DNA of 32,595 bases from Microcoleaceae cyanobacterium (GCA_051652765.1 JBOFUV010000109.1:1-32595), one strand, 5' to 3'. Positions 8,240 to 26,257 are shown, counted from the stretch's first letter. Numbers and translations are program-made. The notes: generated by a model not told the origin, from the letters alone.

Positions 8240-8290
8240 ATAAGGTCTGAACGATCTATCCTTCATCCAGCAAACATCCTCTTGAAGGGC

Positions 8291-8526
8291 GTGAGATCAA
8301 CGCGGGTTTAGTGTGAGATCAACGCGGGTTTAGTAAAAGATCAATGCGGGTTTAGTAAAAGATCAACGCGGGTTTAGTGTGAGATCAATGCGGGTTTAGT
8401 AAAAGATCAACGCGGGTTTAGTAAAAGATCAACGCAGGTATGGTGTGAGATCAACGCGGGCATGGTGTGAGATCAATGCGGGTTTAGTGAAAGATCAACG
8501 CGGGTTTGATGTGAGATCAATGCGGG
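8291..8526. repeat. Tandem array of a 22-bp unit, 10 full copies plus 1 partial
   Basis: Unit (GTG/AAA)AGATCAAYGCGGGTTTAGT starting at 8291, 8313, 8335, 8357, 8379, 8401, 8423, 8445, 8467, 8489, 8511. Confidence 0.95.
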
Positions 8527-8636
8527 AGCGGGTCGCTGTTAACGAGCAAATGCTTTACGATAGCCTTGATCTTTCTCCGCGATCAACACGGGCAGAATGG
8601 TCTGGGCATCGTAACAACTGAATCGGTGAATTTTGC

Positions 8637-8873: not shown

Positions 8874-9803
8874 GTGATGGAATCATCTGAGATTAATCCT
8901 GAATTACAGATACCGGACTTTGACCAGGCAGATGCCTTACTCTCCAACTTGCTTCAGGAGGCAGAAAAATGGGGTGGCTCCTTAAGTGGGGGTCAGCAAC
9001 GCAACCTGAGTGCCGGGGCAGTCAGCGCGCTATTTCAGAGCGAAGTTCGTTTGGGCAATCCCAGAGACAACCTGGTTCAACTCACGGAGGAAATCTTTGC
9101 TGAGAGTGGCGTTGAGCTGACAGACATCTACAAACAGCAGATGCAGAGCCAGTTTGACTTTTATTACATGACCTTCACCGTTGATTTACGTCCTCAGCCA
9201 GGGGCGCAGTTCTGGCGATTGGTCTGTCAATTGGACTATGGCCCTAAGGGAGACACTGAACCGATCATTCAACGATTATTCCCCACTGATCAATGGCGGT
9301 CAGTCATGAGTTTTGGCGTGGGCATGGATGTTGGGCTGGATGGCAATCTGAGCTGGAAGGGTAGTGTGAATAGTTCCCAGTTGGAGGGATTGCTCGGTGC
9401 TCTACCCCAGGAACTCAAAGCCAGCGTTACCACGAACAATAGTTTCAAAGCATTCCTGGCCATTCCCGCCTACAAATATGAACTGGGTCAGGCAGAAATT
9501 CTGGCCTCTGGCGAGGGCAACTCCATCTGTGACTGGCGCATCACTGCCGGAAACCTCCACAAAGTCGGCACAGCCAAGTTTGGGATTGTGTTCAAAGTTC
9601 CGAAAGGGATGGAGGCGATCGCCCTAGAAGCCAAAGCCTGGGCAGAACCCAACATGAACTGGTTAACGGCGGATTTGCGAGATGTCGCCGCAGAGCTTTC
9701 AGATCGGTTCAAGCAGCTTTTGAAAAAGCAAGAAGCCGCCAGTCAATTTGCCCGAGGCCAAGCCGAAGTCTGGAATCTGGCTCTCCCAAAAGCCAGTATC
9801 TGA
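8874..9803 (+). CDS. Hypothetical beta-rich protein, co-oriented immediately upstream of the CHAT protease
   Basis: 309-aa ORF with GGAGG RBS upstream; central amphipathic beta pattern; 37 bp from the next ATG. Confidence 0.8.
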   Translation: MMESSEINPELQIPDFDQADALLSNLLQEAEKWGGSLSGGQQRNLSAGAVSALFQSEVRLGNPRDNLVQLTEEIFAESGVELTDIYKQQMQSQFDFYYMTFTVDLRPQPGAQFWRLVCQLDYGPKGDTEPIIQRLFPTDQWRSVMSFGVGMDVGLDGNLSWKGSVNSSQLEGLLGALPQELKASVTTNNSFKAFLAIPAYKYELGQAEILASGEGNSICDWRITAGNLHKVGTAKFGIVFKVPKGMEAIALEAKAWAEPNMNWLTADLRDVAAELSDRFKQLLKKQEAASQFARGQAEVWNLALPKASI

Positions 9804-9840
9804 ACTGTTTCAGTCTATCACTCCAAACCGAACTCCCCAA

Positions 9841-11184
9841 ATGACCCATTCTGAAAAAACTTACTACACCTATCGGATTCGGATCGCCAATCCCGAACGG
9901 GTTCAGGTCGAGCGCCGTGACCCTGAAAACCAAACGATGGGAGAACCCGCTGGCGTTTTTCAGTATGAGGCAGAGCAGATCAAGCCCCTCCTTGAGGCCG
10001 CTGCTCAGAACGAGTTCAAAGACGAGAAACAAGCGCAATACCTAGGGGAAACCCTCTTCAATACTTTGTTTGACCCAACGCTTCGCCAGGACTTTGTGAA
10101 TTTCTATCAGCAGGTTGTGCGCCTTGAAAAGCAACTGTTGCGGGTGGAGCTGGATATTGATGAACAGGGAATGCCTGCGATCGCGGCTCTGCCCTGGGAG
10201 TTGATGTGTCTGCCCGAGAGCACCAATTTAGGAACGCTCTGGCTGGGAACCGATCCCAATCTTGTCTTTTCCCGTCGCCGCAATCAATGGCACGCTGCCC
10301 CACCCATTCAACTGGAAGCGGGTGAGAAACTCAGAATTGCCCTGGTGGTTTCAGCGTCGGAAAACTTGGGGCCAGTGGTCTATGAAAAAGCCCAGACTGC
10401 GTTGGAAAAGTTGGCACAGAGGCAACCAGAACAGATTGAGTTATTGCCAATTGTTCATTCTGCAACTCCTGAGAAGATTGATCAGATTCTGGAGCAACAA
10501 CCTCACATTTTTCACTTTATTGGCCATGGTCGATTTCAGGATGAAACCGGGAAGGAAGTCAGCCAAATTGCCCTAGTAGATGATGTATTTGATGATGCAT
10601 TGTGGGTTGATTCTCGTTTCTTCAGTGGTCTATTTGCTCGGCATCAACCTGGAATTGTTCTGTTACAGGCTTGTGAGGGTGGAAAATTATCAGATTCTCA
10701 AGCATTTGTGGGGGTTGCGTCGCGGGTTGTCCAGGAGAATATTCCGGTGGTGGTGGCGATGCAGTATGAGATTTCTAATGCAATGGCGAGTCGGTTTGCC
10801 TATCGTTTTTATGAGGGCTTGGCGAAGAATGAACCTGTAGATATTTCGGTGCAAAATGGACGGCGGGCGATCGCATTGAATACTCAGTATCGAAATCGAG
10901 ATTTTGCGACTCCTGTGATCTTGATGCGGGTGAATAATGGGTATCTTTTCAAACGAGATGAACCGGAGTTAGAAGTAGACAAAAACTCTCAAGCTGCGGG
11001 GAATGTTGGTTTTATTCAAAGTGGTTGGACGGTTCAAGGGGATGTGAATCAAGCTCAACGGGATGTCGTGATCAACAAAAGCTCTGAAACGTTTACCAAT
11101 AATTTGCAAGGAGCCAGCATTGGTAATTTTGCCAACAAGGTTCAGGGTCAGGCCCGTCAACAGAGCAACGTTGAGGAGGAGTAG
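9841..11184 (+). CDS. CHAT-domain (caspase HetF-associated) cysteine protease with N/Q-rich C-terminal tail
   Basis: LPWELM, LRIALVVSAS, catalytic HFIGHG and LQACEG, PVVVAMQYEI, FAYRFY; ATG at 9841 preferred (the 9748 start overlaps the upstream gene). Confidence 0.9.
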   Translation: MTHSEKTYYTYRIRIANPERVQVERRDPENQTMGEPAGVFQYEAEQIKPLLEAAAQNEFKDEKQAQYLGETLFNTLFDPTLRQDFVNFYQQVVRLEKQLLRVELDIDEQGMPAIAALPWELMCLPESTNLGTLWLGTDPNLVFSRRRNQWHAAPPIQLEAGEKLRIALVVSASENLGPVVYEKAQTALEKLAQRQPEQIELLPIVHSATPEKIDQILEQQPHIFHFIGHGRFQDETGKEVSQIALVDDVFDDALWVDSRFFSGLFARHQPGIVLLQACEGGKLSDSQAFVGVASRVVQENIPVVVAMQYEISNAMASRFAYRFYEGLAKNEPVDISVQNGRRAIALNTQYRNRDFATPVILMRVNNGYLFKRDEPELEVDKNSQAAGNVGFIQSGWTVQGDVNQAQRDVVINKSSETFTNNLQGASIGNFANKVQGQARQQSNVEEE

Positions 11185-11243
11185 ACCCCCTAAAGCCCCC
11201 CTAGCCCCCCAATTCTGGGGGGAACTGGATTTAGCCCCCCTAG
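11185..11243. repeat. Cyanobacterial short dispersed repeat (poly-C/poly-G type)
   Basis: CCCCCTAAAGCCCCCCTAGCCCCCCAATTCTGGGGGGAACTGGATTTAGCCCCCCTAG. Confidence 0.7.
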
Positions 11244-11337
11244 CTGTTGTTGCTGAAAATCCGCGAGAATTCAACAAGTTGGCGACCAGCACATCAACAT
11301 CTTCATCGAGATAAACGTGGATGAAAATATTGGTCAT
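11240..11337 (-). pseudogene. Truncated DUF5615 (PIN-like) toxin
   Basis: MTNIFIHVYLDEDVDVLVANLLNSRGFSATTAR is a DUF5615-type N-terminus coupled to the DUF433 stop; similarity ends at the dispersed repeat. Confidence 0.7.
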
Positions 11338-11615
11338 ACTCCCCGAACTCGTGGATCAATGAGATCATCCGATATGTGGTTGCGTTCGATATGTTTATTA
11401 ATCTCTGCCTGGTGATCCAGATAATAGCTGAGGGCATCGAAAACTTGAGCCAGAGTCAGGTGGGGCAAGCGCTGGGGAATTTCTTCAGGAGAAACGCCAA
11501 TCCGCCACAGTTCAACAATCGCTCGCACAGGGGTGCGTGTCCCGCGAATAATCGGTTCACCACTGAGAATTTCATCATTTCTAACGATGTAGCAGTGTTC
11601 AGTTAACTGAAGCAT
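11334..11615 (-). CDS. DUF433 antitoxin
   Basis: ILSGEPIIRGTRTPVRAIV...SPEEIPQRLPHLTLAQVFDALSYY; ATG at 11615. Confidence 0.88.
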   Translation of the reverse strand: MLQLTEHCYIVRNDEILSGEPIIRGTRTPVRAIVELWRIGVSPEEIPQRLPHLTLAQVFDALSYYLDHQAEINKHIERNHISDDLIDPRVRGV

Positions 11616-11719
11616 AGTTCTCTCAGAATGTTTTGATAACCTTATCCCTAATTGTAAAGGTCTCTTCAAAAAAACCATGCCAGAATGGAACTGTTGCCAA
11701 TGGAGGTGGGGCGTGGAAC
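11606..11719. repeat. Copy 1 of a duplicated divergent-promoter/gene-start segment
   Basis: 11606-11694 matches 12484-12572 (81/89); 11670-11719 matches 13215-13264 (49/50), including the Roco RBS and GTG start. Confidence 0.9.
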
Positions 11720-11727
11720 AGCAGAAA

Positions 11728-12201
11728 TTACAGGTATTTCTGAAGTAATCCTTCCAGAATTTGGGAAGAGATGCGGAAATTGGTTTGCTGCAATTGAGCG
11801 ATAACGTCAGGAAGGTGGATCAACCCCAGAGAAGCAGCGTCATCCAAAATACCAATCATGCCGATCACTACTACCCCACGCTGAATAGCAGCATTTCTAC
11901 CAGACCGTTCATCCATGATCAGTAATTGGGCGCTGAGTTGTTCAGCCAGAGCAATTGCAGCTTGTTCACCAGGGTCTAAGCGGCTTAGTGCTGGATCGGC
12001 AGGCTGCATCAGGGTTTGAACGTTCAGCCAGGATGGTGGTTGACTTATCCATTGCTGAAGTTTGATAGGTGCGTTGGCAGATTGCAGTTCCCTCAGAACA
12101 ACATCAGGAATAGTAATCTGGTCGTAGAGTCGGGGTAGGAGGTCAATCTGGTCGATCAAAACCAGGTAACAAATAGGAGAGGTGTCGGCAACAACAATCA
12201 T
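11728..12201 (-). CDS. PIN-domain toxin (DUF3368 type)
   Basis: MIVVADTSPI, LDPGEQAAIALA, LLIMDERSGR. Confidence 0.88.
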   Translation of the reverse strand: MIVVADTSPICYLVLIDQIDLLPRLYDQITIPDVVLRELQSANAPIKLQQWISQPPSWLNVQTLMQPADPALSRLDPGEQAAIALAEQLSAQLLIMDERSGRNAAIQRGVVVIGMIGILDDAASLGLIHLPDVIAQLQQTNFRISSQILEGLLQKYL

Positions 12202-12476
12202 GGTTGAGAAGACTGTGCCGTCCGAATTTCTTGGAGAACAGCGCGGTCATTTTCCAGGTCAGTTTCGTTGTAGTGAAGATAGGCTCTCGCTGCTTTCAGA
12301 AATGCATCCACCTCCCAACGCGAGAGATTCAGGATTTTACCCACTTCTGCGTGGGTCAATAATTCATCCCGATAGGCTTGAGCAACCATCGACTCCAGAG
12401 CACGGCGGGGCAAGTCAGGAATCCTTTGTTGAAGGTGTTCGGCGATTTCGTCTGGAATGGTGATTGTAATTTGCAT
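12198..12476 (-). CDS. UPF0175-family antitoxin
   Basis: MQITITIPDEI...LTHAEVGKILNLSRWEVDAFLK...YNETDLEND; 4-bp overlap with the PIN gene. Confidence 0.85.
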   Translation of the reverse strand: MQITITIPDEIAEHLQQRIPDLPRRALESMVAQAYRDELLTHAEVGKILNLSRWEVDAFLKAARAYLHYNETDLENDRAVLQEIRTAQSSQP

Positions 12477-12483
12477 ATTTCTG

Positions 12484-12572
12484 ACTGAAGCAGGGTTCTC
12501 TCAGAATGTTTTGATAACCTTATCCCCAATTGTAAAGGTCTCTTCACAAGAACTCTGCCAGAATAGAACTGT
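12484..12572. repeat. Copy 2 of the divergent-promoter segment
   Basis: ACTGAAGCA..GTTCTCTCAGAATGTTTTGATAACCTTATCCCCAATTGTAAAGGTCTCTTCA..TGCCAGAATAGAACTGT; contains TACAAT on the minus strand (candidate -10). Confidence 0.88.
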
Positions 12573-12593
12573 CGTGAACAAAGTTGCGAGTTG

Positions 12594-12785
12594 ATGACTA
12601 TCAAAGAAGAACTCATTCAAGAGATTGAGAATATTTCAGAAGCTGAATTAATTAGGGTGCTGGAGTTTGTGAAGACACTGAGAACGGACTCTGGGGCTGA
12701 ATCTGATACTCATCTGGTTTGGCAAGCCTATCTTCAATCTGAACAGGAACGAGAGGAGGTTTACCGCCGTCTTGCTGACTCCTAG
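12594..12785 (+). CDS. Small antitoxin, DUF2281-like
   Basis: MTIKEELIQEIENISEAELIRVLEFVKTL; overlaps the downstream doc gene. Confidence 0.75.
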   Translation: MTIKEELIQEIENISEAELIRVLEFVKTLRTDSGAESDTHLVWQAYLQSEQEREEVYRRLADS

Positions 12786-13164
12786 ATTTTTGACACAAGA
12801 GACTGTCTTGGCAATTCACGCTAGACAGATTGATCGATTCGGAGGAACATCTGGACTGCGAGATGCAGGACTATTAGACTCTGCTCTCGCTCAACCGCAA
12901 GCAACTTTTTCGGGAGAATTTTTACATCAGACCATTGCAGAACAGGCAGGGGCTTATCTGTATCACCTGGTCATGAATCATCCATTTATTGATGGCAATA
13001 AACGGACAGCTTTCGCGGTGATGGATACCTTTTTACGGGTGAATGGTTATACTCTAACTTTGACAGATCAGCAGGCGTGTGAACTAGTTGTAAGCGTTGT
13101 TGAAGGTGAAATAACCAAAGTTGAATTGATTGCTGAACTTAGAAATATTGTCGTTGGAACTTGA
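12772..13164 (+). CDS. doc: Death-on-curing (Doc/Fic) toxin
   Basis: FGGTSGLRDAGLLDSAL and the Fic motif HPFIDGNKRTA. Confidence 0.92.
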   Translation: MLTPRFLTQETVLAIHARQIDRFGGTSGLRDAGLLDSALAQPQATFSGEFLHQTIAEQAGAYLYHLVMNHPFIDGNKRTAFAVMDTFLRVNGYTLTLTDQQACELVVSVVEGEITKVELIAELRNIVVGT

Positions 13165-13257
13165 AGGTATCCATCACAGACATGAATTCATTTGACATGC
13201 GATCAATTTCTCACAAAAACCATGCCAGAATGGAACTGTTGCCAATGGAGGTGAGGC

Positions 13258-16200
13258 GTGGAACGGGCAGAATTATTAGCACTAATCGACCAAGCCGCAG
13301 AAGAAGGCTGGAAAGAACTTGATCTCGCTGGAAAAGAACTCACCGAACTCCCGCCCGAAATTGGCAAGTTAACTCAGCTTGAAACGTTAACTTTGGGGAA
13401 ATGGGATGAAGAGAAACGTGAATCGATTGGAAACCAACTGACAACTCTGCCCCCTGAAATCACTGCATTAGTAAACCTAAAAACGCTTAACCTCCATTCC
13501 AACCCAATCAAAGAGATACCTGAATGCATTGGACAATTGGCCAATCTGAAAGAACTTTACCTCTGGAAGAACCCAATCAAAGAGATACCTGAATTCATTG
13601 GGCAATTGGCCAATCTGAAAGAACTTTACCTCGGAAAGAACCAAATCACAGAGATACCTGAATTCATTGGGCAATTGACTAACCTGACAGAACTTTACCT
13701 CGGAAAGAACCAAATCACAGAGATTCCTGAATTCATTGGGCAATTAACCAATCTGACAAAACTTTACCTCTGGGAGACCCAAATCACAGAGATTCCTGAA
13801 TTCATTGGGCAATTAACCAATCTGACGGCGCTTTCCCTTAGTGACAACCCAATCAAAGAGATACCTGAATTCATTGGGCAGTTAACCAATCTGACAGAGC
13901 TTCACCTCTGGAAGAACCAAATCACAGAGATTCCTGAATTCATTGGGCAGTTAACCAATCTGAAAGAACTTTACCTTAGTGACAACCAAATTACAGAGAT
14001 ACCTGAATTCATTGGGCAATTAACTAACCTGACACAGCTTCGCCTAAGTGACAACCAAATTACAGAGATACCTGAATTCATTGGGCAGTTAACTAATCTG
14101 ACTGCGCTTCACCTCGGAAAGAACCAAATCACAGAGATACCTGAATGCATTGGGCAGTTAACCAATCTGAAAGAGCTTCACCTCTGGGAAAACCAAATCA
14201 AAGAGATACCTGAATGTATTGGGCAATTAACCAATCTGACTGAGCTTTACCTCAGGGAGAACCAAATCACAGAGATACCTGAATGTATTGGGCAGTTAAC
14301 TAATCTGACTGAGCTTCACCTCGGAAAGAACCAAATCACAGAGATACCTGAATGCATTGGACAATTGGCCAATCTGACTGTGCTTTCCCTTAGTGACAAC
14401 CCAATCACAGAAATACCTGAATGCATTGGGCAATTGGCCAATCTGACGGCGCTTTCCCTTGGTGGCAACCCAATCAAAGAGATACCTGAATGCATTGGGC
14501 AATTAACCAATCTGACTGCGCTTCACCTCTGGAAGAACCAAATCACAGAGATACCTGAATGCATTGGGCAATTAACCAATCTGACTGTGCTTCGCCTCGG
14601 TGGCAACCAAATCACAGAGATACCTGAATACATTGGGCAGTTAACTAATCTGAAAGAGCTTTCCCTTAATGACAACCCAATCAAAGAGATACCTGAATGT
14701 ATTGGGCAACTCACCAATCTGACACAGCTTCGCATCGGTGGCAACCAAATCAAAGAGATACCGGAATGTATTGGGCAATTAACCAACCTGACAGAGCTTT
14801 CCCTCTGGGGAAACCAAATCAGTGAGATTCCTGAATGTATTGGGCAACTCACCAATCTGACTGAGCTTGACCTCTGGGATAACCAAATCAAAGCAATTCC
14901 GATCTGTCTGGAAAATTTACCTAATCTCAAAGCATTAAGTTTAGCAAATAATCCGTTGCCGATTTCTCCTGAACTGTTGGCAGATTCTGAGAATCCAGAG
15001 GCGATTTTTGACTATTGTCGGCGGCTTCGTGGTGGTGAAGTGCGTCCCTTGAATGAAGCCAAGCTGTTGTTGGTGGGGCAGGGAAGTGTGGGCAAAACGT
15101 CGTTGATCAATCGGTTAATTCATGAGCAATTTGACCAGAATGAACCCCAAACTGATGGTTTGAATGTGACGGAATGGAGGGTTCATGTGAATAGTAAAGA
15201 CGTTCGGCTGAATGTGTGGGACTTTGGCGGGCAGGAAATTTATCATGCCACCCATCAGTTTTTTCTGACCAAACGCAGTCTGTACCTGTTGGTTTGCAAC
15301 TGTCGCACTAGCGAGGAGGCAAACCGGATTGAGTATTGGTTGCAGTTGATTCAGGGGTTTGGGGATGAATCTCCCGTGATTATTGTGGGGAATAAGTGCG
15401 ACGAACAACCCCTAGACATTAACCGTCGGGCGTTGCAAGAAAAATATCCGAATATCAAGGCCATTCTGGAAACCTCTTGTCAGGAGAACCGGGGAATTGA
15501 GGAATTGCGAGAGGCAATCACCCAGGAAATTGCGGAACTGCGGAATGTGTATGACCTGTTGCCCCTGTCTTGGTTTGAGGTGAAGGAAGAACTCGAACGC
15601 TTGGATAAGGATTTTATCCCCTATGAAAAATATGTCTGCATCTGCGATCGCCAAGACATTACTGAGGAATCCGATCAGGAACAGTTGGTGAAGCTGTTAC
15701 ATGATTTAGGGTTGGTGCTGAACTTTCGAGATCATCCGATTCTCCAATCCACCAATGTTCTGAATCCGGATTGGGTGACGGCGGGAATTTACAAGCTTCT
15801 CAGCGACGAGCAGTTGAAGACGGAAGGCAAGGGAATTTTGACTGGGGAAGACTTGAGTCGGGTACTCGATCCAGAACGTTACCCCGCCAAGCGCTATATC
15901 GTTCTGACGGAATTGATGAAGGAGTTTCAGCTTGGCTTTCAGGTTCTAGATCAACCGGGAACGTTCCTGATTCCAGGACTGCTACCCAAGGAGGAACCCA
16001 AGGAAACTGACCTAGAGGGCGACACCCTGGAATTTCAGTACCACTACGCCATTCTGCCGGGGAGTATTCTGTCGCGGTTCATTGTCCTCAGTCATGAAAA
16101 AATCCACAACCAAATTCACTGGCGCACGGGGGTGATGTTGGCCTATCGGGAAGGAACAGAAATTTGTAATATTGCTCGCGTTAAGTCCGATCCGGAAGAC

Positions 16201-16671
16201 CGAAAAATCTTCATTTCCATCAACGGTCGAGAATCCACCCGTCGTTCGTTCCTAGCCATGATTCGGGATGTGTTCCAGAGCATTCACAGCAGTTTCGGCA
16301 ATTTGCAGGTGGGAGAATGGGTTCCCGTTCCCGGTCATCCCGAACATGCACCGCTAGACTATCAGGAATTGTTGGGGTTAGAAGCGATGGGCGAAAAGGA
16401 TTATCCCATTGGTAAGCTGCGAATTCGGGTAAACCTGCGGCAACTGTTAGACGGCTACGAACCCCTTGAATCCCGGCAACGGAAACAGATGAAAGAGCAG
16501 GATCGGGAGTTTATGGAAGGTCGTCATTTTGAAGACCGCTATCCTGGGGGAATTCATATCAATGTTCACCAAAGCAATCAACCCACAACCAAAACCACCA
16601 ACAATCTCCAAGGGTCAACGGTCGGAAACTTTGCTAACAAGGTTGAAGACAATGCCCGTCAGCAAGCGTAG
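13258..16671 (+). CDS. Roco protein: LRR array + Roc GTPase + COR, with N/Q-rich C-terminal motif
   Basis: 23-aa LRRs; P-loop GQGSVGKTS, WDFGGQE (G3), GNKCD (G4), COR motifs LHDLGLVLNF, LNPDWVT, SRFIV, HWRTGV; GGAGG RBS. Confidence 0.95.
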   Translation: MERAELLALIDQAAEEGWKELDLAGKELTELPPEIGKLTQLETLTLGKWDEEKRESIGNQLTTLPPEITALVNLKTLNLHSNPIKEIPECIGQLANLKELYLWKNPIKEIPEFIGQLANLKELYLGKNQITEIPEFIGQLTNLTELYLGKNQITEIPEFIGQLTNLTKLYLWETQITEIPEFIGQLTNLTALSLSDNPIKEIPEFIGQLTNLTELHLWKNQITEIPEFIGQLTNLKELYLSDNQITEIPEFIGQLTNLTQLRLSDNQITEIPEFIGQLTNLTALHLGKNQITEIPECIGQLTNLKELHLWENQIKEIPECIGQLTNLTELYLRENQITEIPECIGQLTNLTELHLGKNQITEIPECIGQLANLTVLSLSDNPITEIPECIGQLANLTALSLGGNPIKEIPECIGQLTNLTALHLWKNQITEIPECIGQLTNLTVLRLGGNQITEIPEYIGQLTNLKELSLNDNPIKEIPECIGQLTNLTQLRIGGNQIKEIPECIGQLTNLTELSLWGNQISEIPECIGQLTNLTELDLWDNQIKAIPICLENLPNLKALSLANNPLPISPELLADSENPEAIFDYCRRLRGGEVRPLNEAKLLLVGQGSVGKTSLINRLIHEQFDQNEPQTDGLNVTEWRVHVNSKDVRLNVWDFGGQEIYHATHQFFLTKRSLYLLVCNCRTSEEANRIEYWLQLIQGFGDESPVIIVGNKCDEQPLDINRRALQEKYPNIKAILETSCQENRGIEELREAITQEIAELRNVYDLLPLSWFEVKEELERLDKDFIPYEKYVCICDRQDITEESDQEQLVKLLHDLGLVLNFRDHPILQSTNVLNPDWVTAGIYKLLSDEQLKTEGKGILTGEDLSRVLDPERYPAKRYIVLTELMKEFQLGFQVLDQPGTFLIPGLLPKEEPKETDLEGDTLEFQYHYAILPGSILSRFIVLSHEKIHNQIHWRTGVMLAYREGTEICNIARVKSDPEDRKIFISINGRESTRRSFLAMIRDVFQSIHSSFGNLQVGEWVPVPGHPEHAPLDYQELLGLEAMGEKDYPIGKLRIRVNLRQLLDGYEPLESRQRKQMKEQDREFMEGRHFEDRYPGGIHINVHQSNQPTTKTTNNLQGSTVGNFANKVEDNARQQA
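13501..14880 (+). repeat. 20 x 69-bp intragenic LRR repeat array
   Basis: Unit N(Q/P)I(T/K)EIPE(C/F)IGQL(T/A)NL(T/K)xLxLxx; 20 x 69 = 1380 bp fits exactly. Confidence 0.95.
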
Positions 16672-19149: not shown

Positions 19150-22100
19150 TCAGTAGCCATCCATTTTGCCTGTGTTGTCACCCTTAGAGTTGGATTCGAT
19201 ATCAGTCTCAGCACTAGGAACTGTTAGTTCAAAATCATCACAAAGTTTATTCACTAAATCTTCCATTTCCTTGAAAAAATAACTTCCTACAGTCTTCTGA
19301 TTTAATATTTTATATCTGCGATATATTTTTCCGAAGTCATCATATATTTCGTCTTCTGAGATATTAGAATTAATTTTGACGATTAATCGCTTACCCTCAT
19401 CGGATGCTCGAATATAAGCAAAGAAATCAATAATTTTTGATTCAAATTCACGAATTCGTTCTCCTTTTAAGTCCTCTTGCTCGTTACGCGCTTCAAGAAT
19501 AGCAAGCACATCAAATTGATGGGTGTTATAAGCTCCTGTTGCCTCTGCTACCTTAGTCACTTGCCTTTTCTTTGGCTCTGGATCTTGAGTTTCGACCTCA
19601 ATAATGCCAATTTGATTATCGAAATAGACCTCGATCGCGTCTTTTACATCATCAGTGCGATAAAGCCTGTTGTATATGGCGTTGAAGAATCGTAGAAATT
19701 CTAGCAGGGTGGATTCGCTATATTTCTCATCCAGAGTGATCACATACTCAATGCGGTTGAGAATAGTGAAATACTGGGCAGCTTTCGCTTTGGTATCAGC
19801 AGCGCGATTGGGGTTGGCGCTAATATACTTTTCGATGCTGCTTTCTAGATCAAGGTATCTTTCGGGGTCAGTGTGCTTGGCATCATCGTTAAAGATGGTG
19901 AGAAAGATCGTAAAGAATTCTACATAAATATCGGACTTTTTAAGCTCTGTGAACAGGATGTCTAAAACTCGTTGATCGCTGAAGGGATCAAAGTCGCTGA
20001 CGACTACATCCGAGAAATGCTCGAAGGCATCTTTGAGGTTTTGGACGTTGACGTTATTATAGGAAAAGTCAACAATTTTGCAGTCATTTTTATATTTGGC
20101 AGTGCGGTTGACTCGTGAAATGGCTTGAATTGCGGCAATGCCTTTGATTTCTTTGTCGAGAAATAGGGTGTGGAGTTTTTTCTCATCAAAGCCGGTTTGG
20201 AGTTTGGCAACAACGATAATTAAGCCGTTTTTCTTGAGTGCAAAGTTTTCTAGAACTTTTTCCTCGTTTAGTCCGTCGTTTAGTCCAGTGGCGCTTTGTT
20301 CATCTTGGTTGCTGGAATAGACGACATGAATGGGCGCGTCAGCATATTTGGCGTATTTGGGCTGCTTGATGAGTTCGTTAAAGTGTTGGGTGACTGCCTG
20401 TTTGTAGGCGATCGCCGCTTTAATTGAGTAAACGGCTAGCATGGCTTTGCCTGTGCCTCGAATTTGCCGATAGACATCTTTCACTAACAAATCGGCAATG
20501 TATTGGGCGATCGCATCAATTCGTTCACGATTTTCGTAGATGTCTTTTTTGTCTGCGTCTTTGTAGTTGGGTTCGGTAAAGCCTTCCAGTTGGTTGCTGG
20601 GTAGGTCAAACAGCATTTTGGAGGCGACGGGAACGATGTTTTTGAGCGGGTTGAGGATGAAGCCGTCTTCGATCGCTTCTTTCATGGTGTAGGAGTCGAA
20701 GGGTACCCAGAGTTTTTCGCTTTCGGCATAGCCGCTGAATTCACCAAAGCGGGCGAGGGTGTGGTCGTCGGGAGTGGCGGTGAAACCCACGATTAGGTTC
20801 TTTTTGGTGCGGAGGAGGCTGGTTTGGCGTTGGCTGAAAGAGTTTTGGAGATCGAAGGGGGTTTGGAGTTCGTCGAAGATATTGACCATTTCTTCGTGTT
20901 GGTCGCCGCTGTTGGATCGGTGGATTTCGTCGATTAGGAAGACGATGCGGAGTTGAGAGAGTTTTTCTAAGGTGTCGTCGTCGAGCATTTCTCGGACGGA
21001 GCCAAACTTTTGCAGGTTGACGATGACGAGGCGGGTGTCGGATTTGAGGGCGGTTTGGAAGGTGGTTTTGTTGTGGGCTTCGATGTACATCCGGTTGTCG
21101 ATGTTCATGTTCAGCAGTTTGGAGTCGATTTGGCTGCGGAGTTGGAGCCGATCTACGACGATCATGATTTTGTCGTAGACGTATTGACCGTTGCGGCGGA
21201 GGTCTTTGAGTTGGAGGGCTGTCCAGCCGATGATGTTGGATTTGCCGAATCCGGCGGCGTATTGGAGGAGGAGGGAGTAGACGTTTTTGTTGTTGGCGTA
21301 GGCGCTGCGTTTTTCGATCAGTTCGGCGCGTTTGCTGGGGGAGACGTTGGCGAGTTGTTGTTCTAGCTGATGGATGAAGTAGTCGTCTTCGGTTTCGTGG
21401 GCCAGGAATTCGTCGATTTTGGCGAGGATTTTGTCGGTACCAAATTTTTGTTTGGGACGGGGGGAGATTAGGTGGCCCAGTTCGTTTTTGAGTTCTTTTC
21501 GGCCATTGATGACATAGACATCGCGTTCGATGAAGTTGTAGTAGAGGATTTCTTTTTCGATATTGCTTTTGCTGTAGTGGGCGGTGAAGAGTTCTTTGAG
21601 TTTGTCTTTTTTGTCGGCGGCGGGGTTGAGCAGGGGGTAGGGCTTGAAGACTTTGAAGGTTTTCTTTTCGTAGTCTTCACGATCGAATTTGCCTTCGCGG
21701 CAGGTGGTGAGGATTTCGTCGAAGAAGTCGGAGAGGGTGCGAATGATGTAGGTTTCGCCAATGTCGGTGCTGGTGATGTGGATGGCTTTTTCAAATATTT
21801 TGAGGAAGTCTTTGCGGTAGGTGTCTTTTTCTTTGTCGCTGAGGTGGGGGTTGCGATCGAAGGTCTCGTAGTAGACTCGGACGGCCTCGAAGTAGTCTTT
21901 GATGACTTTACCGCGCCCATTTTTGCTGGCATTTTGGTTGGTGAGGTTGGATTTTAGTTCGCTGTAGCCGAGGTAGATGCCGTTGACGAAGAGGCTAATA
22001 TCGGGGCGAAACGAGAAGATCTGTTTACCTTGATATTTGTATTTGTAGGGGAGTTCTTGGACGACGGAGAAGATGTTTTGGGCGAAGAGGCGGCTGCCAT

Positions 22101-22437
22101 GGATAACGCTATCGTCGGTGTAGAACAGGTGGAGCTTGATGCCTTGGAGGGTGACGGATTTGTTGGCGTTGATGAAGAGGGCCATGTTACGACTGCTGGC
22201 GATCCGATCTTGGATCAGTACGATCAGTTCTGTTAGGAGTTTTTTGGCGTTGCCGTTGTATTTTTTGAGGAGGATTTCGTAGGCTTGTTGGTTGAGTTCG
22301 GTGGTTGCGATAAAGGTTTGGAGGTCTTCTTCGATGATCAGGCTATTGGTGATGGTGTTGGCTTTGACTTCTTGGTAGCCTAATTCATCCTGAAAGAAGG
22401 GAATGAGGAATTTATCTTGGAGGTGAAGTTCGCTCAT
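19150..22437 (-). CDS. hsdR: Type I restriction endonuclease subunit R
   Basis: Nuclease motif RPDISLFVNG..SELK, Walker A AAGFGKS, IDEIHRS, GFTATP, KLQTGFD, QAISRVNR. Confidence 0.92.
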   Translation of the reverse strand: MSELHLQDKFLIPFFQDELGYQEVKANTITNSLIIEEDLQTFIATTELNQQAYEILLKKYNGNAKKLLTELIVLIQDRIASSRNMALFINANKSVTLQGIKLHLFYTDDSVIHGSRLFAQNIFSVVQELPYKYKYQGKQIFSFRPDISLFVNGIYLGYSELKSNLTNQNASKNGRGKVIKDYFEAVRVYYETFDRNPHLSDKEKDTYRKDFLKIFEKAIHITSTDIGETYIIRTLSDFFDEILTTCREGKFDREDYEKKTFKVFKPYPLLNPAADKKDKLKELFTAHYSKSNIEKEILYYNFIERDVYVINGRKELKNELGHLISPRPKQKFGTDKILAKIDEFLAHETEDDYFIHQLEQQLANVSPSKRAELIEKRSAYANNKNVYSLLLQYAAGFGKSNIIGWTALQLKDLRRNGQYVYDKIMIVVDRLQLRSQIDSKLLNMNIDNRMYIEAHNKTTFQTALKSDTRLVIVNLQKFGSVREMLDDDTLEKLSQLRIVFLIDEIHRSNSGDQHEEMVNIFDELQTPFDLQNSFSQRQTSLLRTKKNLIVGFTATPDDHTLARFGEFSGYAESEKLWVPFDSYTMKEAIEDGFILNPLKNIVPVASKMLFDLPSNQLEGFTEPNYKDADKKDIYENRERIDAIAQYIADLLVKDVYRQIRGTGKAMLAVYSIKAAIAYKQAVTQHFNELIKQPKYAKYADAPIHVVYSSNQDEQSATGLNDGLNEEKVLENFALKKNGLIIVVAKLQTGFDEKKLHTLFLDKEIKGIAAIQAISRVNRTAKYKNDCKIVDFSYNNVNVQNLKDAFEHFSDVVVSDFDPFSDQRVLDILFTELKKSDIYVEFFTIFLTIFNDDAKHTDPERYLDLESSIEKYISANPNRAADTKAKAAQYFTILNRIEYVITLDEKYSESTLLEFLRFFNAIYNRLYRTDDVKDAIEVYFDNQIGIIEVETQDPEPKKRQVTKVAEATGAYNTHQFDVLAILEARNEQEDLKGERIREFESKIIDFFAYIRASDEGKRLIVKINSNISEDEIYDDFGKIYRRYKILNQKTVGSYFFKEMEDLVNKLCDDFELTVPSAETDIESNSKGDNTGKMDGY

Positions 22438-22498
22438 TGTTTTGCTGGAAGGCTATACTGAACTGGAATGGTTTTTAAAGTCTACATCTTAATATTGT

Positions 22499-22639
22499 AT
22501 GCTCAGAAAGTTAGCTGCTACTGATATTGCCGAATGGAACACAAAAAAGCAACGGGCTGATGTGGTGAGATCGAAGCTTATGGCACTAGATTTGAGTGAG
22601 CAGGATATTACCGATGCTATGGCTTGGGTGCGTAGTTAA
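22499..22639 (+). pseudogene. Probable C-terminal remnant of an AbrB/MazE-type antitoxin
   Basis: Own translation ends QRADVVRSKLMALDLSEQDITDAMAWVRS*, resembling the C-termini of AbrB antitoxins paired with PIN toxins; DNA-binding N-terminus absent. Confidence 0.45.
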
Positions 22640-22678
22640 TGACTGCACATAAGGTGTAGGTTGTTTGGGAGTATAAAC

Positions 22679-22960
22679 ATGGTTACGATAGAAACAATTG
22701 TGAATGAATTAAATTCAGTGCCAGAGCCGTTTTTAGCAGAGGTGCTGAAGTTTATTCGATCGGCGAAGGGCAAGACTATTAGTGGATCGAATCAGATAGA
22801 AGAGCTAGAGACAGGTCAACAAGTCGATCGGGATACTCGCGATCGCACTATTACAGAGCTACTCAAAAGCTTTCAAACTGATGAAGTTTCTTTAGAGACG
22901 ATTGATGCTGAGGCTGAGGTTGTAAGGGCTGAACTCTATGCCAAACAGCAAGCCCTTTAG
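22679..22960 (+). CDS. Antitoxin, DUF2281-like N-terminus
   Basis: MVTIETIVNELNSVPEPFLAEVLKFIRS...VSLETIDAEAEVVRAELYA; overlaps the PIN gene. Confidence 0.7.
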   Translation: MVTIETIVNELNSVPEPFLAEVLKFIRSAKGKTISGSNQIEELETGQQVDRDTRDRTITELLKSFQTDEVSLETIDAEAEVVRAELYAKQQAL

Positions 22961-23384
22961 AGTTATTATTGATACTAATCTTTGGATCAGTTTTTTGATT
23001 GGGAAGCAGCTTGCCAGCCTGAAATCACTTTTGGTTGAGGGGACGATTCTACCGGTATTTTCACAACAACTTCTGGATGAAATTACGCTTGTTACTCAAA
23101 GACCAAAGCTACAGAAGTATTTCTCTCCAGAAAAGGTCGCAGATTTAATGGTCTTCCTGAAGGAGATTGGGCTGTTTATAGAGATTAAATCGAATACCTC
23201 TATTTGTCGCGATCCCAAAGATAATTACCTGTTGGCTTTAGCTAAAGATAGTCAAGCAGATTATCTAATTACAGGCGATCTAGATCTATTGATTTTAGAA
23301 AATTTTGAAGGGACTGCTATTTTAGCTTATCAAGATTTTACTTCTAGGATAAGTATGGATATTAATGATATTAAGTCACCTTAA
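22938..23384 (+). CDS. PIN-family (VapC-like) toxin
   Basis: RVIIDTNLWIS, CRDPKDNYLLALA, LITGDLDLL. Confidence 0.9.
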   Translation: MPNSKPFRVIIDTNLWISFLIGKQLASLKSLLVEGTILPVFSQQLLDEITLVTQRPKLQKYFSPEKVADLMVFLKEIGLFIEIKSNTSICRDPKDNYLLALAKDSQADYLITGDLDLLILENFEGTAILAYQDFTSRISMDINDIKSP

Positions 23385-24684
23385 TTTTCCCAGTAACGAC
23401 ATCGTTGATTAGGGTTTTACGGAGTTCTTTGAGTTTTTCGATTTGGGTGTTGATGGTTTGGATGATTTGGTCGATCTGCCCAGTTTTGGTGTCGAGGTAA
23501 TGGGCGATCGCCTTTTGTTCGGAGAGTGGTGGAAGAATAGCAAAAACTCTTCCAAGATGAGTTGGTCCGTAATGTTGGATTGTAGTTCCTGACTTTTGTA
23601 AATCGATCTGATTTGTGAAAACATCACTAATTAAAAGGTATCTCAAATAGTCAATCGCCACTCCCTGACGAGGCTTAAATCTAATCAGACCTGTATAAGG
23701 GATAGCACCAAAAGTATCTTCATTTACTTTAGCTACAACTCCAGTAGTAGCACTTGCACTCACCAATAAATTGCCTTGCTTTAATTGAAAATGGCTCCAT
23801 TTTTTTGTCACTTTCATTGGATCTAAATAGTTACAGCCTTCTAATGACACTGTTGAGCCTTTCATTCCTGATATTCTAATTAAAGGGATACCTGTTTCCT
23901 TAAAATCATCACCCATAATTCCAGGACCTTCCTGATAAAATGCGATGTCTTTAAGTTTGCATAGCCTCCAATGTTCAGGCACATCCCCTATCCACTCAAT
24001 TCCACTATCCTTCATCACCACAGACCGATCGAGTCCGCGAGTCACAGCTTCATTGATAATCGATCGCTTGAGCTGCCCGTATTTCGTCGCTTTCTGGGTG
24101 AGTAGATCAATTTTGCGATCGATCTGCGCGGTTTTGGTGTCGAGGTAGTGGGCGATCGATTTTTGTTCATCTAATGAAGGTAAAACAGTCTCAATTTTAA
24201 AGAAATCTTTTGCATACAGACGAAGGCGAGATGACACAATACCTTTTGAATTTCTTGTCATCTCAACTATTGAATTAGGAGTTCTAAAAAAATAGTCAAA
24301 ATATTTATGATTATATGGAATTCCTTTTACGGGTTTGTAAACATTATAAGCAGGGCTACAAATACCTAATTCATTGCTAGTACCTAAAGCCCCCATCCAT
24401 GCCCACATTGTATTTATAACTAAATCACCTTGGCGACAGATCTTATAACCTTCCATTGTCTCTGCCATGAACATATTCACATTTTTCTCACTACGAGGAG
24501 TGACACCCGTAATATGAGAGACAGTGAGCAATGTTTCTTTGCCTGTAGTGCTTAGGCTACTACGCTCTTCAAAAATCTCTTTATTCCGAACAATAGACCA
24601 TGCTGCTGGTACATCGCCTAACCACTCAACCCCACTATCCTTGTAAGCTGGATAACAATGGGTTGCCGATCGATCAATTTTCAT
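23371..24684 (-). CDS. hsdS: Type I restriction-modification specificity subunit
   Basis: Duplicated conserved regions KDSGVEWLGDVP / KDSGIEWIGDVP and EQKxIAHYLDTKTxQID flanking two AT-rich TRDs. Confidence 0.95.
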   Translation of the reverse strand: MKIDRSATHCYPAYKDSGVEWLGDVPAAWSIVRNKEIFEERSSLSTTGKETLLTVSHITGVTPRSEKNVNMFMAETMEGYKICRQGDLVINTMWAWMGALGTSNELGICSPAYNVYKPVKGIPYNHKYFDYFFRTPNSIVEMTRNSKGIVSSRLRLYAKDFFKIETVLPSLDEQKSIAHYLDTKTAQIDRKIDLLTQKATKYGQLKRSIINEAVTRGLDRSVVMKDSGIEWIGDVPEHWRLCKLKDIAFYQEGPGIMGDDFKETGIPLIRISGMKGSTVSLEGCNYLDPMKVTKKWSHFQLKQGNLLVSASATTGVVAKVNEDTFGAIPYTGLIRFKPRQGVAIDYLRYLLISDVFTNQIDLQKSGTTIQHYGPTHLGRVFAILPPLSEQKAIAHYLDTKTGQIDQIIQTINTQIEKLKELRKTLINDVVTGKIKVT

Positions 24685-25052
24685 TGTTCGTTCTCCATTG
24701 TCTTCGGCTTTCTACGAATCCGAATTTTACGTTGCGTCGCAATCACAACAGCCCCAGCCTCTAGATCTTGTGCATGGTTTACCAAAACTTCCTCAAATAG
24801 AACCATTCTTTCCGATCGGGGTAAATTTTCCAATCTCAAAACCCCACAATGAACCCTTCCTTGTAACCAAATCATTTGCTCAAAATCCGAATCAGTTGTA
24901 ATGATAATGCGCTCCTCTCGAACCGCCCAACTCAAAATTTCTCCATCACTCATTTGAGAATCCACATGGCTCACACAAGCCACATCGTGACCTGCATCCA
25001 GAAGCAACGTAGACAACTTCCCACTCGCATTAACATCAAGTAAAAACTTCAT
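24681..25052 (-). CDS. DUF5615 PIN-like toxin
   Basis: MKFLLDVN, GHDV, SDGEILSWA, RIIITTDSDF; stop overlaps the hsdS start. Confidence 0.88.
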   Translation of the reverse strand: MKFLLDVNASGKLSTLLLDAGHDVACVSHVDSQMSDGEILSWAVREERIIITTDSDFEQMIWLQGRVHCGVLRLENLPRSERMVLFEEVLVNHAQDLEAGAVVIATQRKIRIRRKPKTMENEQ

Positions 25053-25054
25053 TA

Positions 25055-25306
25055 CTAAGATGCCGCCACCCGTTCAAAAACCTCCTCATTCTCCACAAGG
25101 TGATGGGCGTAGAGCAGCGCCGCATAAATATCAGCCATCTCCAGTTCCGGATAGTCCTCCAGAATTTCTGGCATCGCTGCACCCTTAGACAAAAGCTCCA
25201 AGATCATCGCCACCGAAATTCTCATCCCGCGAATGATCGGCTTACCACCCAAAACCTCTTGATTGAGAGTAATTCTTGATAATAAATTTTCAGACATCGT
25301 TTCCAT
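25055..25306 (-). CDS. DUF433 antitoxin
   Basis: VLGGKPIIRGMRISV...EILEDYPELEMADIYAALLYA. Confidence 0.9.
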   Translation of the reverse strand: METMSENLLSRITLNQEVLGGKPIIRGMRISVAMILELLSKGAAMPEILEDYPELEMADIYAALLYAHHLVENEEVFERVAAS

Positions 25307-25324
25307 CAGAAATCTCCTGTTTGA

Positions 25325-25528
25325 TTAACAATCAATCATCAACGACTCAAGCTTGCTCAACTCCTCATCTAGCGCCGCAATCTCTCCTAAAATATCCTCA
25401 ACACTCCGCAACCTCTCCGGCTGATAAAACACCTTATTAAAATTAATCTCCACCCCCACCACATTTTCCAAATACTCAAACGGCTTCGTAATATACTTCG
25501 CCATAAACACCGCGATCATATTCTCCAA
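25325..25528 (-). pseudogene. Orphan duplicate of the hsdM 3' end (divergent allele)
   Basis: FMAKYITKPFEYLENxVGVEINFNKVFYxPExLRSVExILGEI shared with the HsdM C-terminus; 25431-25508 matches 26361-26438 at 76/78. Confidence 0.9.
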
Positions 25529-25556
25529 TTATCAATTGATAATTGGCAATTAATAA

Positions 25557-25904
25557 TTAAAACCCCCCTTCCTCAATAATTGCCTCTATCTCAGCCAACA
25601 AAAGCGGCAGGCTTTCAGTAACAGTCTGCCAAACAATGTCATAATTCATCCCAAAATAAGCATGGACTAAACGGTTTCGCATCCCGATCATATCTTTCCA
25701 AGGAACGTGAGGATAACGTAATTGACAATCCATCGAAATATTGTTAGCTGCTTCACCAATAATTTCTAACTCCTTCACTAAAGCCAGTGCCAGCATCCGA
25801 TTGTTTTTTAAATTCTCCTTACTTTGACCTAAAATAAAGTTTTCCGCCTCATGGCAAGCATCCACAATATGCTTCAAGCGAGACAAATTATCTTGTGCTG
25901 TCAT
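25557..25904 (-). CDS. HEPN-domain RNase toxin (DUF86/HepT-like)
   Basis: LEIIGEAA, PWKDMIGMRNRLVHAY (Rx4H). Confidence 0.9.
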   Translation of the reverse strand: MTAQDNLSRLKHIVDACHEAENFILGQSKENLKNNRMLALALVKELEIIGEAANNISMDCQLRYPHVPWKDMIGMRNRLVHAYFGMNYDIVWQTVTESLPLLLAEIEAIIEEGGF

Positions 25905-26211
25905 ATTGAATCATCGCCTCCTTCAGCACCCGATCTCGAAAATAAGGACTTAACTCTTCCGGCGTTCTTAAATCAATCTTGCGACCCTGGAAGAATTTCG
26001 ACAACTCTCTTTCCATTTGCGCTAACTTGAAAAAAGTCGGTGTATAGCTCACCTTAAACTCAACCAAAAAATCTAGATCACTATCCTCTGTAAAGTCATC
26101 CCGTAACACCGAACCAAACAAAGATAGCTTGGCAATCTGATGGCGATCGCAAAATTGCTGCAACTCCTGGCGAGGAATTTTAATCGGTAAAATTAATGTG
26201 TTATCCATCAT
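25888..26211 (-). CDS. Minimal nucleotidyltransferase antitoxin (MntA-like)
   Basis: LFGSVLRDDFTEDSDLDFLVEF (GSx10DxD); overlaps the HEPN gene. Confidence 0.9.
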   Translation of the reverse strand: MMDNTLILPIKIPRQELQQFCDRHQIAKLSLFGSVLRDDFTEDSDLDFLVEFKVSYTPTFFKLAQMERELSKFFQGRKIDLRTPEELSPYFRDRVLKEAMIQYDSTR

Positions 26212-26257
26212 TTACATTGCCTCTCACTATCACCAGACTAAATTGCCTTTAACGATT

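Follow-up and report, generated by a model that had tools for sequence, protein, structure and literature searches.

A stretch of 32,595 nucleotides (nt) from a Microcoleaceae cyanobacterium (GCA_051652765.1, JBOFUV010000109.1), which we call the window, contains what may be a three-part defense locus on its forward strand. It starts with a gene for a 309-amino acid (aa) protein (8874..9803), followed by a CHAT caspase-like protease (9748..11184; PF12770, E 1e-20), whose probable start is the ATG at 9841 (447 aa), and, after several toxin-antitoxin-type cassettes, by an LRR-Roc-COR sensor of the Roco/AP-GTPase type, assigned through Pfam (13258..16671). The protease and the sensor end in versions of the same 23-aa peptide, here motif B, located on the forward strand at 11095..11163 in CHAT (six more residues and the stop) and at 16597..16665 in the Roco (one more residue and the stop). 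Both copies are C-terminal and lie ca. 5.5 kb apart, with the CHAT stop at 11184 and the Roco start at 13258; both stop codons are read from the assembly alone. An earlier sequence-only reading of this DNA was exact about the coordinates and the peptides, which share 17 of 23 residues, eight of them with different codons (48/69 nt identical). We searched the whole genome (5.04 Mb in 158 contigs, completeness 99.97%, 87,223 six-frame open reading frames [ORFs]) with a two-sequence profile, which retrieved the window copies with E values of 3.5e-14 and 1.4e-13 (next best, 0.72), and with a 21-sequence profile, which found the same two copies only (next best, 2.6). No third copy appeared with either profile, and the likeness of the pair exceeds chance.

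The protease has its catalytic residues His260 and Cys309 (478-aa numbering), with GHG and AC motifs intact. The C-terminal tails of its 119 homologs vary widely, and they can be compared with the neighboring genes. Out of 94 loci, 75 had complete CHAT ends, of which 63 were closed and non-redundant (12 open or redundant ones were dropped); 34 of these had tails of 20 to 135 aa (29 longer ones were dropped) and 31 remained once three loci with no other ORF had been removed. Among these 31 short tails, 21 scored at least 48 with an ORF, other than CHAT, in the same locus, with 6.4 expected from other loci, the threshold having been set from shuffled tails (maxima of 40 to 54), and the other ten had no own-locus match. 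The summed own-locus score was reached in 0 of 20,000 permutations, a test that overstates the case given that kin loci are interdependent, and ca. 13 of the matches depend on a single widespread motif (the EAD10 core). The partners were VMAP genes with EAD1 or EAD-like domains, the EAD10 beta core, found by itself in many tails, and the N-terminal motif of NB-ARC-TPR proteins (L126 and, weakly, L002), while at L019 and L020 the tail matched a different motif that leads the helical tail of a pentapeptide protein. With its own Roco, the window tail reaches a score of 98, and elsewhere it has no more than 51. Judged from these sequence comparisons, the CHAT tail is a swappable slot that copies the adaptor of a neighbor (EAD1, the EAD10 core or BASS-like motifs), and the window fits this rule with a new motif, motif B. 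The same tail carries a second low-complexity stretch, motif A (11005..11079, forward strand), with the core QAQRD, a word present in BASS cluster C01; it is identical at 17 of 25 residues to the tail of the CHAT homolog P0028, and no other carrier that could act as its partner was found in the genome or the fetched loci.

The 309-aa protein has no match in Pfam, NCBIfam or PADLOC and no sequence match in the PDB. Its predicted model (predicted local distance difference test [pLDDT] 71.8) shows an alpha-hemolysin/leukocidin-like beta-sandwich with N-terminal helices and, at the position expected for a stem, a low-confidence Gly-rich amphipathic segment (ca. residues 138-171). With VIA-align, the top 6 of 48,161 chains all belonged to the hemolysin/leukocidin family (best match Z 10.1, root mean square deviation 4.3, 159 residues). 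The top of the Foldseek list was also entirely hemolysin/leukocidin (best E 4.7e-7), with a template modeling (TM) score of only 0.26. As to gasdermins, there was no Pfam match, and hemolysin/leukocidin chains led the fold lists, in which not every family need be represented. The ESM features, to be taken only as a lead, gave leukocidin as the nearest named cluster (0.86). From the model, the protein is probably a pore-forming effector. The CHAT gene comes directly after the 309-aa gene in 79 of 93 loci, and both form a conserved two-gene unit; the 309-aa gene was found in 27 of the 401 genomes of the order. This gene, whose product is probably the target of the protease, had been overlooked in the sequence-only reading, as had the second, BASS1-like motif of the CHAT tail. 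The family as a whole is unannotated, with a predicted hemolysin/leukocidin fold and a nearly constant place directly 5' of CHAT (window; L001-L022, L113-L183), and at L165 one member shares its reading frame with a vWA-type/NB-ARC/TPR protein. In the literature searched, mostly papers outside subscription, we found neither a defense unit of CHAT with a hemolysin fold nor the motif B words.

The window Roco is the only Roc-COR gene of the genome, and its P-loop, DFGG and NKxD motifs are intact. Its leucine-rich repeats (13416-15026) include ca. 20 or more near-identical 69-nt units with ca. 80% DNA identity, in which a few surface positions vary, as expected of a diversifying sensor. The C termini of Roco homologs vary (helical bundle, TIR, bare motif and others). 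Motif B is carried by 50 of 71 homologs, in 49 of these with at least 75 residues after it. Another motif, bare and G/D-rich, forms the end of 13 of the 71, a parallel to the bare terminal motif of the window Roco. In the two loci with this G/D motif that were examined, L102 and L045, both with Rocos interrupted in the assembly, it turns up again further downstream, within a DUF4926 gene, where it precedes motif B (or a relative) and the bundle. The split Roco at L102 7769-9719 and L045 402-1698 shows the bare end motif followed by a small two-gene cassette that includes this DUF4926 gene. Its homologs have a C-terminal helical bundle and, upstream, an internal Met; the window Roco has neither. 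A motif placed C-terminally after COR had been considered unusual in the sequence-only reading; this concern falls, as in bacterial Roco/AP-GTPases the slot that varies is described at the C terminus, with caspases and EADs listed there (Kaur et al., PMC8195603).

Outside the window, motif B is found in a mobile C-terminal module, made of a Met, the motif and a helical bundle of 90-105 aa. All 19 outside matches of the first genome search had at least 90 residues after the motif (18 the helical domain of 90-107 aa and one a TPR tail), and the long tail was kept in 32 of 37 representatives. The motif was present in 44 of the 401 genomes; eight had two matches, which lie close together in three of them, the window genome included. 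A plasmid search gave no motif B match. The motif profile and the listing of its carriers, suggested in the sequence-only reading, did bring out varied architectures (among them Roco, pentapeptide-repeat, AbiTii, TIR, DUF4926, TRADD-N and GTPase proteins), but no other CHAT/Roco pair. Since at least two or three different helical domains, as well as a TPR tail, are found attached to motif B, it behaves as an independent unit. The model of the Roco-type module is a confident four-helix bundle with the motif region at pLDDT <50. A fold search with the bundle gave generic four-helix bundles only (best Z 11.9, below the bar of the tool for helical bundles); the top 50 folds listed included no Bell, HeLo or MLKL chain, which excludes nothing. 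The motif and bundle module belongs to no Pfam family, and the weak bundle matches to Pfam DUF5955 (E 0.19) and PADLOC PDC-M14B (E 5e-5) are leads only. No remnant of the bundle was detected 3' of either window stop, and none was in frame with the motif elsewhere; an unrelated ORF on contig C131 has a bundle-like match without the motif. As the homologs keep the bundle and the window copies do not, both window proteins are shortened forms. This bears out a caveat of the sequence-only reading, namely that the motif is often followed by a helical domain and that the window copies could be truncated: the bundle is kept in 49 of the 71 Roco homologs.

The module also has what look like the marks of an internal start. 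An in-frame Met lies at most 15 residues 5' of motif B in 33 of 44 carriers (which include the two window copies, both without it) versus 116 of 732 control windows, kin being treated as independent, and a Shine-Dalgarno match of at least 4 nt precedes 12 of these 33 Mets versus 9 of 130 control Mets. Stand-alone clusters of 120-126 aa that look like the module exist. At L097 (11608-12003) and ca. 40 other loci, many cyanobacterial immune-type proteins are fused to the module, which appears to have a start codon and a ribosome-binding site of its own inside the gene. L095 8826-11181 (G422) has two adjoining genes, each with motif B and then a different helical domain, and L096 5447-8885 (G576) has three adjacent ORFs (NACHT-HEAT, HEAT and 82 aa) with a related GAQIG-core motif, terminal in two of them and N-terminal in the third.

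The codon differences had been taken in the sequence-only reading as a sign of selection on the peptide and not of a recent DNA duplication. For the pair as such, this does not hold: 26% of the 1,081 pairs among 47 distinct outside copies reach at least 17/23, a figure inflated by the choice of these copies for their likeness to the window ones, and 59% of the 61 outside pairs with 15-19 identities show an equal or larger share of synonymous codons. With outside pairs equally alike and synonymous, the codon argument speaks for peptide-level selection in the family at large and not for selection between CHAT and Roco. The peptide is conserved family-wide, and pair-specific co-evolution of the window copies is not demonstrable from their sequences. 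A recent DNA duplication between the two was rejected: the Roco copy shares 53 and 51 of 69 nt with outside Roco copies versus 48 of 69 with the CHAT copy and, being nearer to the former, the window copies have not recently been copied from one another.

The BASS amyloid signaling motifs are described as ca. 25-aa, N/Q-rich and P/L-poor stretches common to the products of close genes, with a composition rich in N, Q, G, V and I and poor in K, P and L; CHAT is listed among their effectors, with the motif at the C terminus, and the receptor is an NB-ARC/NACHT NLR with the motif at the N terminus (10.1101/2020.01.06.895854). Motif B resembles them in being shared by the products of genes within ca. 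5 kb, and in being C-terminal on a CHAT effector. Its family composition over a 33-column alignment agrees with the BASS bias in N 22%, Q 11%, P 1.3% and L 1.9%, whereas G and K (4.5% each) are not distinctive. There is local likeness to cluster C03, words of which are shared by other tails of the CHAT family, and by eye those tails resemble clusters C03, C01 and C09. The Bab/Agp system of BASS11 is likewise described with a short N/Q-rich motif on the products of close genes (10.1101/2024.11.07.622273). In contrast to BASS, the window receptor is an LRR-Roc-COR GTPase with a C-terminal motif, and not an NB-ARC/NACHT or TGP protein with an N-terminal one, and in the motif B family the helical domain comes after the motif, not before it. 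Four diagnostic five-letter words of motif B had 0 occurrences in the available part of the BASS1-10 cross-validation sets (PMC8086366), and on this word search membership in BASS1-10 is not supported. Nor is RHIM, with S or T at the Q position of G-phi-Q-phi-G and no Pfam match of either tail at E 10; GAQIG is present in some outside members of the family. What remains of the amyloid-type motif of the sequence-only reading is an N/Q-rich, Pro-poor peptide in two nearby immune-type genes, and not its place in BASS1-10 or RHIM. The pair would work like a BASS pair, but we do not file it as one: a Roco takes the place of the NLR with its motif at the N terminus, the BASS sets searched lack the motif words, and motif B has neither the RHIM core nor the Pfam match.

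Other known systems share parts of this arrangement. In Runella, a fused Roc-COR-CHAT protease is reported to cleave a gasdermin (10.1101/2021.06.07.447441), and the window also has a Roc-COR sensor, a CHAT protease, predicted to be competent by its intact His and Cys motifs, and an adjoining gene for a predicted pore-former. Unlike the Runella system as described, the window has one gene for the sensor and another for the protease, with a shared peptide as their putative link, and the effector model matches alpha-hemolysin/leukocidin folds. By analogy, the locus looks like a split counterpart of that all-in-one system. The likeness of the 309-aa protein to the toxins themselves (beta-sandwich cap and amphipathic stem segment) is that of a predicted model, and it differs from them in lacking a Pfam or PDB sequence match. 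As in the AP-GTPases and EADs described so far (PMC8195603, PMC7159879), there is an LRR-GTPase-COR protein with a variable C-terminal slot and, by sequence, matching adaptors on neighboring genes, but here the adaptor is a 23-aa unstructured peptide from a Pfam-less module, and neither the tails nor the module has an EAD Pfam match. A constant gene on the 5' side of a caspase-family gene with a variable C terminus also recalls EACC1 and EACC2 (the latter compared by description only); the constant gene of the window is 309 aa, beta-rich and Pfam-less, in contrast to the single-transmembrane EACC1 domain.

At this locus we observe the domains, catalytic motifs that are intact, the motif common to both proteins, the match of tails with neighbors, the linkage of the genes and the predicted fold. 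We propose that motif B is a homotypic adaptor peptide through which the Roco recruits CHAT, and CHAT in turn activates the 309-aa pore-former, in a three-part cell-death defense locus; from sequence comparison we would give this proposal an even chance. The leucine-rich repeats would sense the invader and Roc-COR would change conformation or oligomerize, as in the family. The C-terminal motif B of the Roco would then cluster and template or bind that of CHAT, probably in a cross-beta assembly, the clustered protease would turn active, and its cleavage of the hemolysin-fold protein would perforate the membrane and kill the infected cell. Motif B may derive from the mobile cyanobacterial module, both proteins having kept the motif and lost the bundle, a loss that would rewire the output of the Roco from its own bundle to the protease. 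A more ambitious version seems rather unlikely to us: motif B would be a new amyloid signaling family with reversed polarity (C-terminal on the Roco and N-terminal on a helical effector with an internal start), re-routed here to CHAT and the hemolysin-fold pore. Given the tail-matching slot and the intact context, the pair is still likely to matter despite the failure of the codon argument.

Several facts speak against the recruitment of CHAT by the Roco. Many outside pairs are at least as alike as the window pair, both copies lack an Asn kept in 40 of 47 outside copies, and AlphaFold2 gives part of motif B as a low-confidence helix, with no strands. None of the tails of the 119 other CHAT homologs carries motif B, which is also missing from the 93 other loci of the 309-aa gene, the CHAT-motif B pairing having been seen once. 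None of the 71 Roco homologs ends at motif B, and CHAT is absent near all 14 full-length module-bearing Roco loci (9-19 kb fetched). Three toxin-antitoxin cassettes, two of them on the opposite strand, part CHAT from Roco, the CHAT stop adjoins a dispersed repeat, the CHAT/Roco locus is absent from both same-genus genomes, and Roco genes have decayed in the lineage (remnants on contig C112 of this genome and in G401, each next to the cassettes that the window has). The low TM score of the 309-aa model and the kinship and EAD10-core limits of the tail test count on this side as well. Complex prediction with three CHAT tails and three Roco tails (score 0.02, mark 0.32) gave no verdict and was not used. 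The repeat at the CHAT stop, the absence of the locus from the same-genus genomes and the decayed Roco copies, together with the missing pair-specific likeness and the long tails kept outside (19/19, 32/37 and 49/50 of the sets above), are what would be expected if CHAT and Roco had each gained the module and each lost its bundle, CHAT by insertion of the repeat and Roco by deletion, becoming neighbors through a defense hotspot with their bare peptides idle. We see such decay as somewhat unlikely, because neither long ORF is interrupted and the catalytic motifs are intact, because each cut leaves precisely the motif in place and because, with the motif in just 44 of 401 genomes, two copies at a distance of 5.5 kb, of which one occupies a neighbor-copying slot, would hardly meet by accident. 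Both truncations fall within six residues of the motif and, after the fact, we infer that a domain of 100 aa cut at random would seldom be cut this close to the motif twice.

Pairing might also take place without amyloid, if the adaptor were the whole motif and bundle module, as in an EAD, or if the peptide bound a folded partner as a short helix or strand, in which case the locus would have been a matched pair that may now be weakened. Globular EADs are indeed found on other tails of the CHAT family, EAD10 is described as mixed alpha+beta (PMC7159879) and has a core that stands alone in many tails, the bundle is predicted with confidence, and both window copies lack the RHIM core. This is nevertheless improbable for a motif that behaves independently, being attached to at least two or three different bundles and to a TPR tail, and whose composition and local words resemble BASS clusters. 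Finally, motif B could be the leader of an internal-start bundle protein and a homology site for the exchange of C-terminal cassettes, and the pair would simply record recombination. The excess of upstream Mets and Shine-Dalgarno matches, the stand-alone look-alikes and the missing Met in both window copies agree with this, but the copies differ at many synonymous sites (as in the 48/69 nt of the window), so conservation acts on the peptide and not on the DNA, and we regard such a junction as very improbable.

If recruitment through motif B is real, amyloid-type or peptide-adaptor signaling would reach beyond NLRs and include the bacterial Roco GTPases, to which LRRK2 and DAPK are related, short beta-rich motifs and globular EADs would be interchangeable within one protease slot, and cyanobacterial immunity would include a protease-activated hemolysin-fold effector. 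Should the polarity also be reversed, one gene would make both seed and effector, the chain (LRR-GTPase, amyloid, caspase-like protease and beta-barrel pore) would be inflammasome-like, and the protease tail would swap freely between amyloid motifs and globular adaptors. The locus owes its value to the unit of pore-former and CHAT, with the exchangeable tail, as much as to the single motif B pair; with the unit in 27 of 401 genomes there are many natural variants, even if the window pairing is a remnant.

The toxin-antitoxin-type cassettes between CHAT and Roco (11334..13164) have Pfam matches to DUF433, DUF3368, UPF0175 and Fic/Doc, and within them there is a duplicated Roco start region (11666-11730; repeats D11 and D14). 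The short GC-rich dispersed repeat at or just after the CHAT stop (11182..11245, forward strand) has 11 other matches in the genome, ten beginning 10-14 nt after the first base of the stop and one at the TAG itself, and is a possible cause of the end of the CHAT tail. The two Roco remnants are one with the LRR only (L195 8249-9313, G000 C112) and another with the start only (L194 8025-9886, G401). An Rfam search gave no match, and promoter and terminator scans were at chance level. Upstream of the 309-aa gene, positions 8272-8570 hold ca. 10-11 tandem copies of a 22-nt unit, with related arrays on many contigs. At the other side of the locus, 19150-28342 is a second defense cluster of the window, with Type I restriction-modification genes (R, S and M by ORF inspection) amid several toxin-antitoxin pairs.

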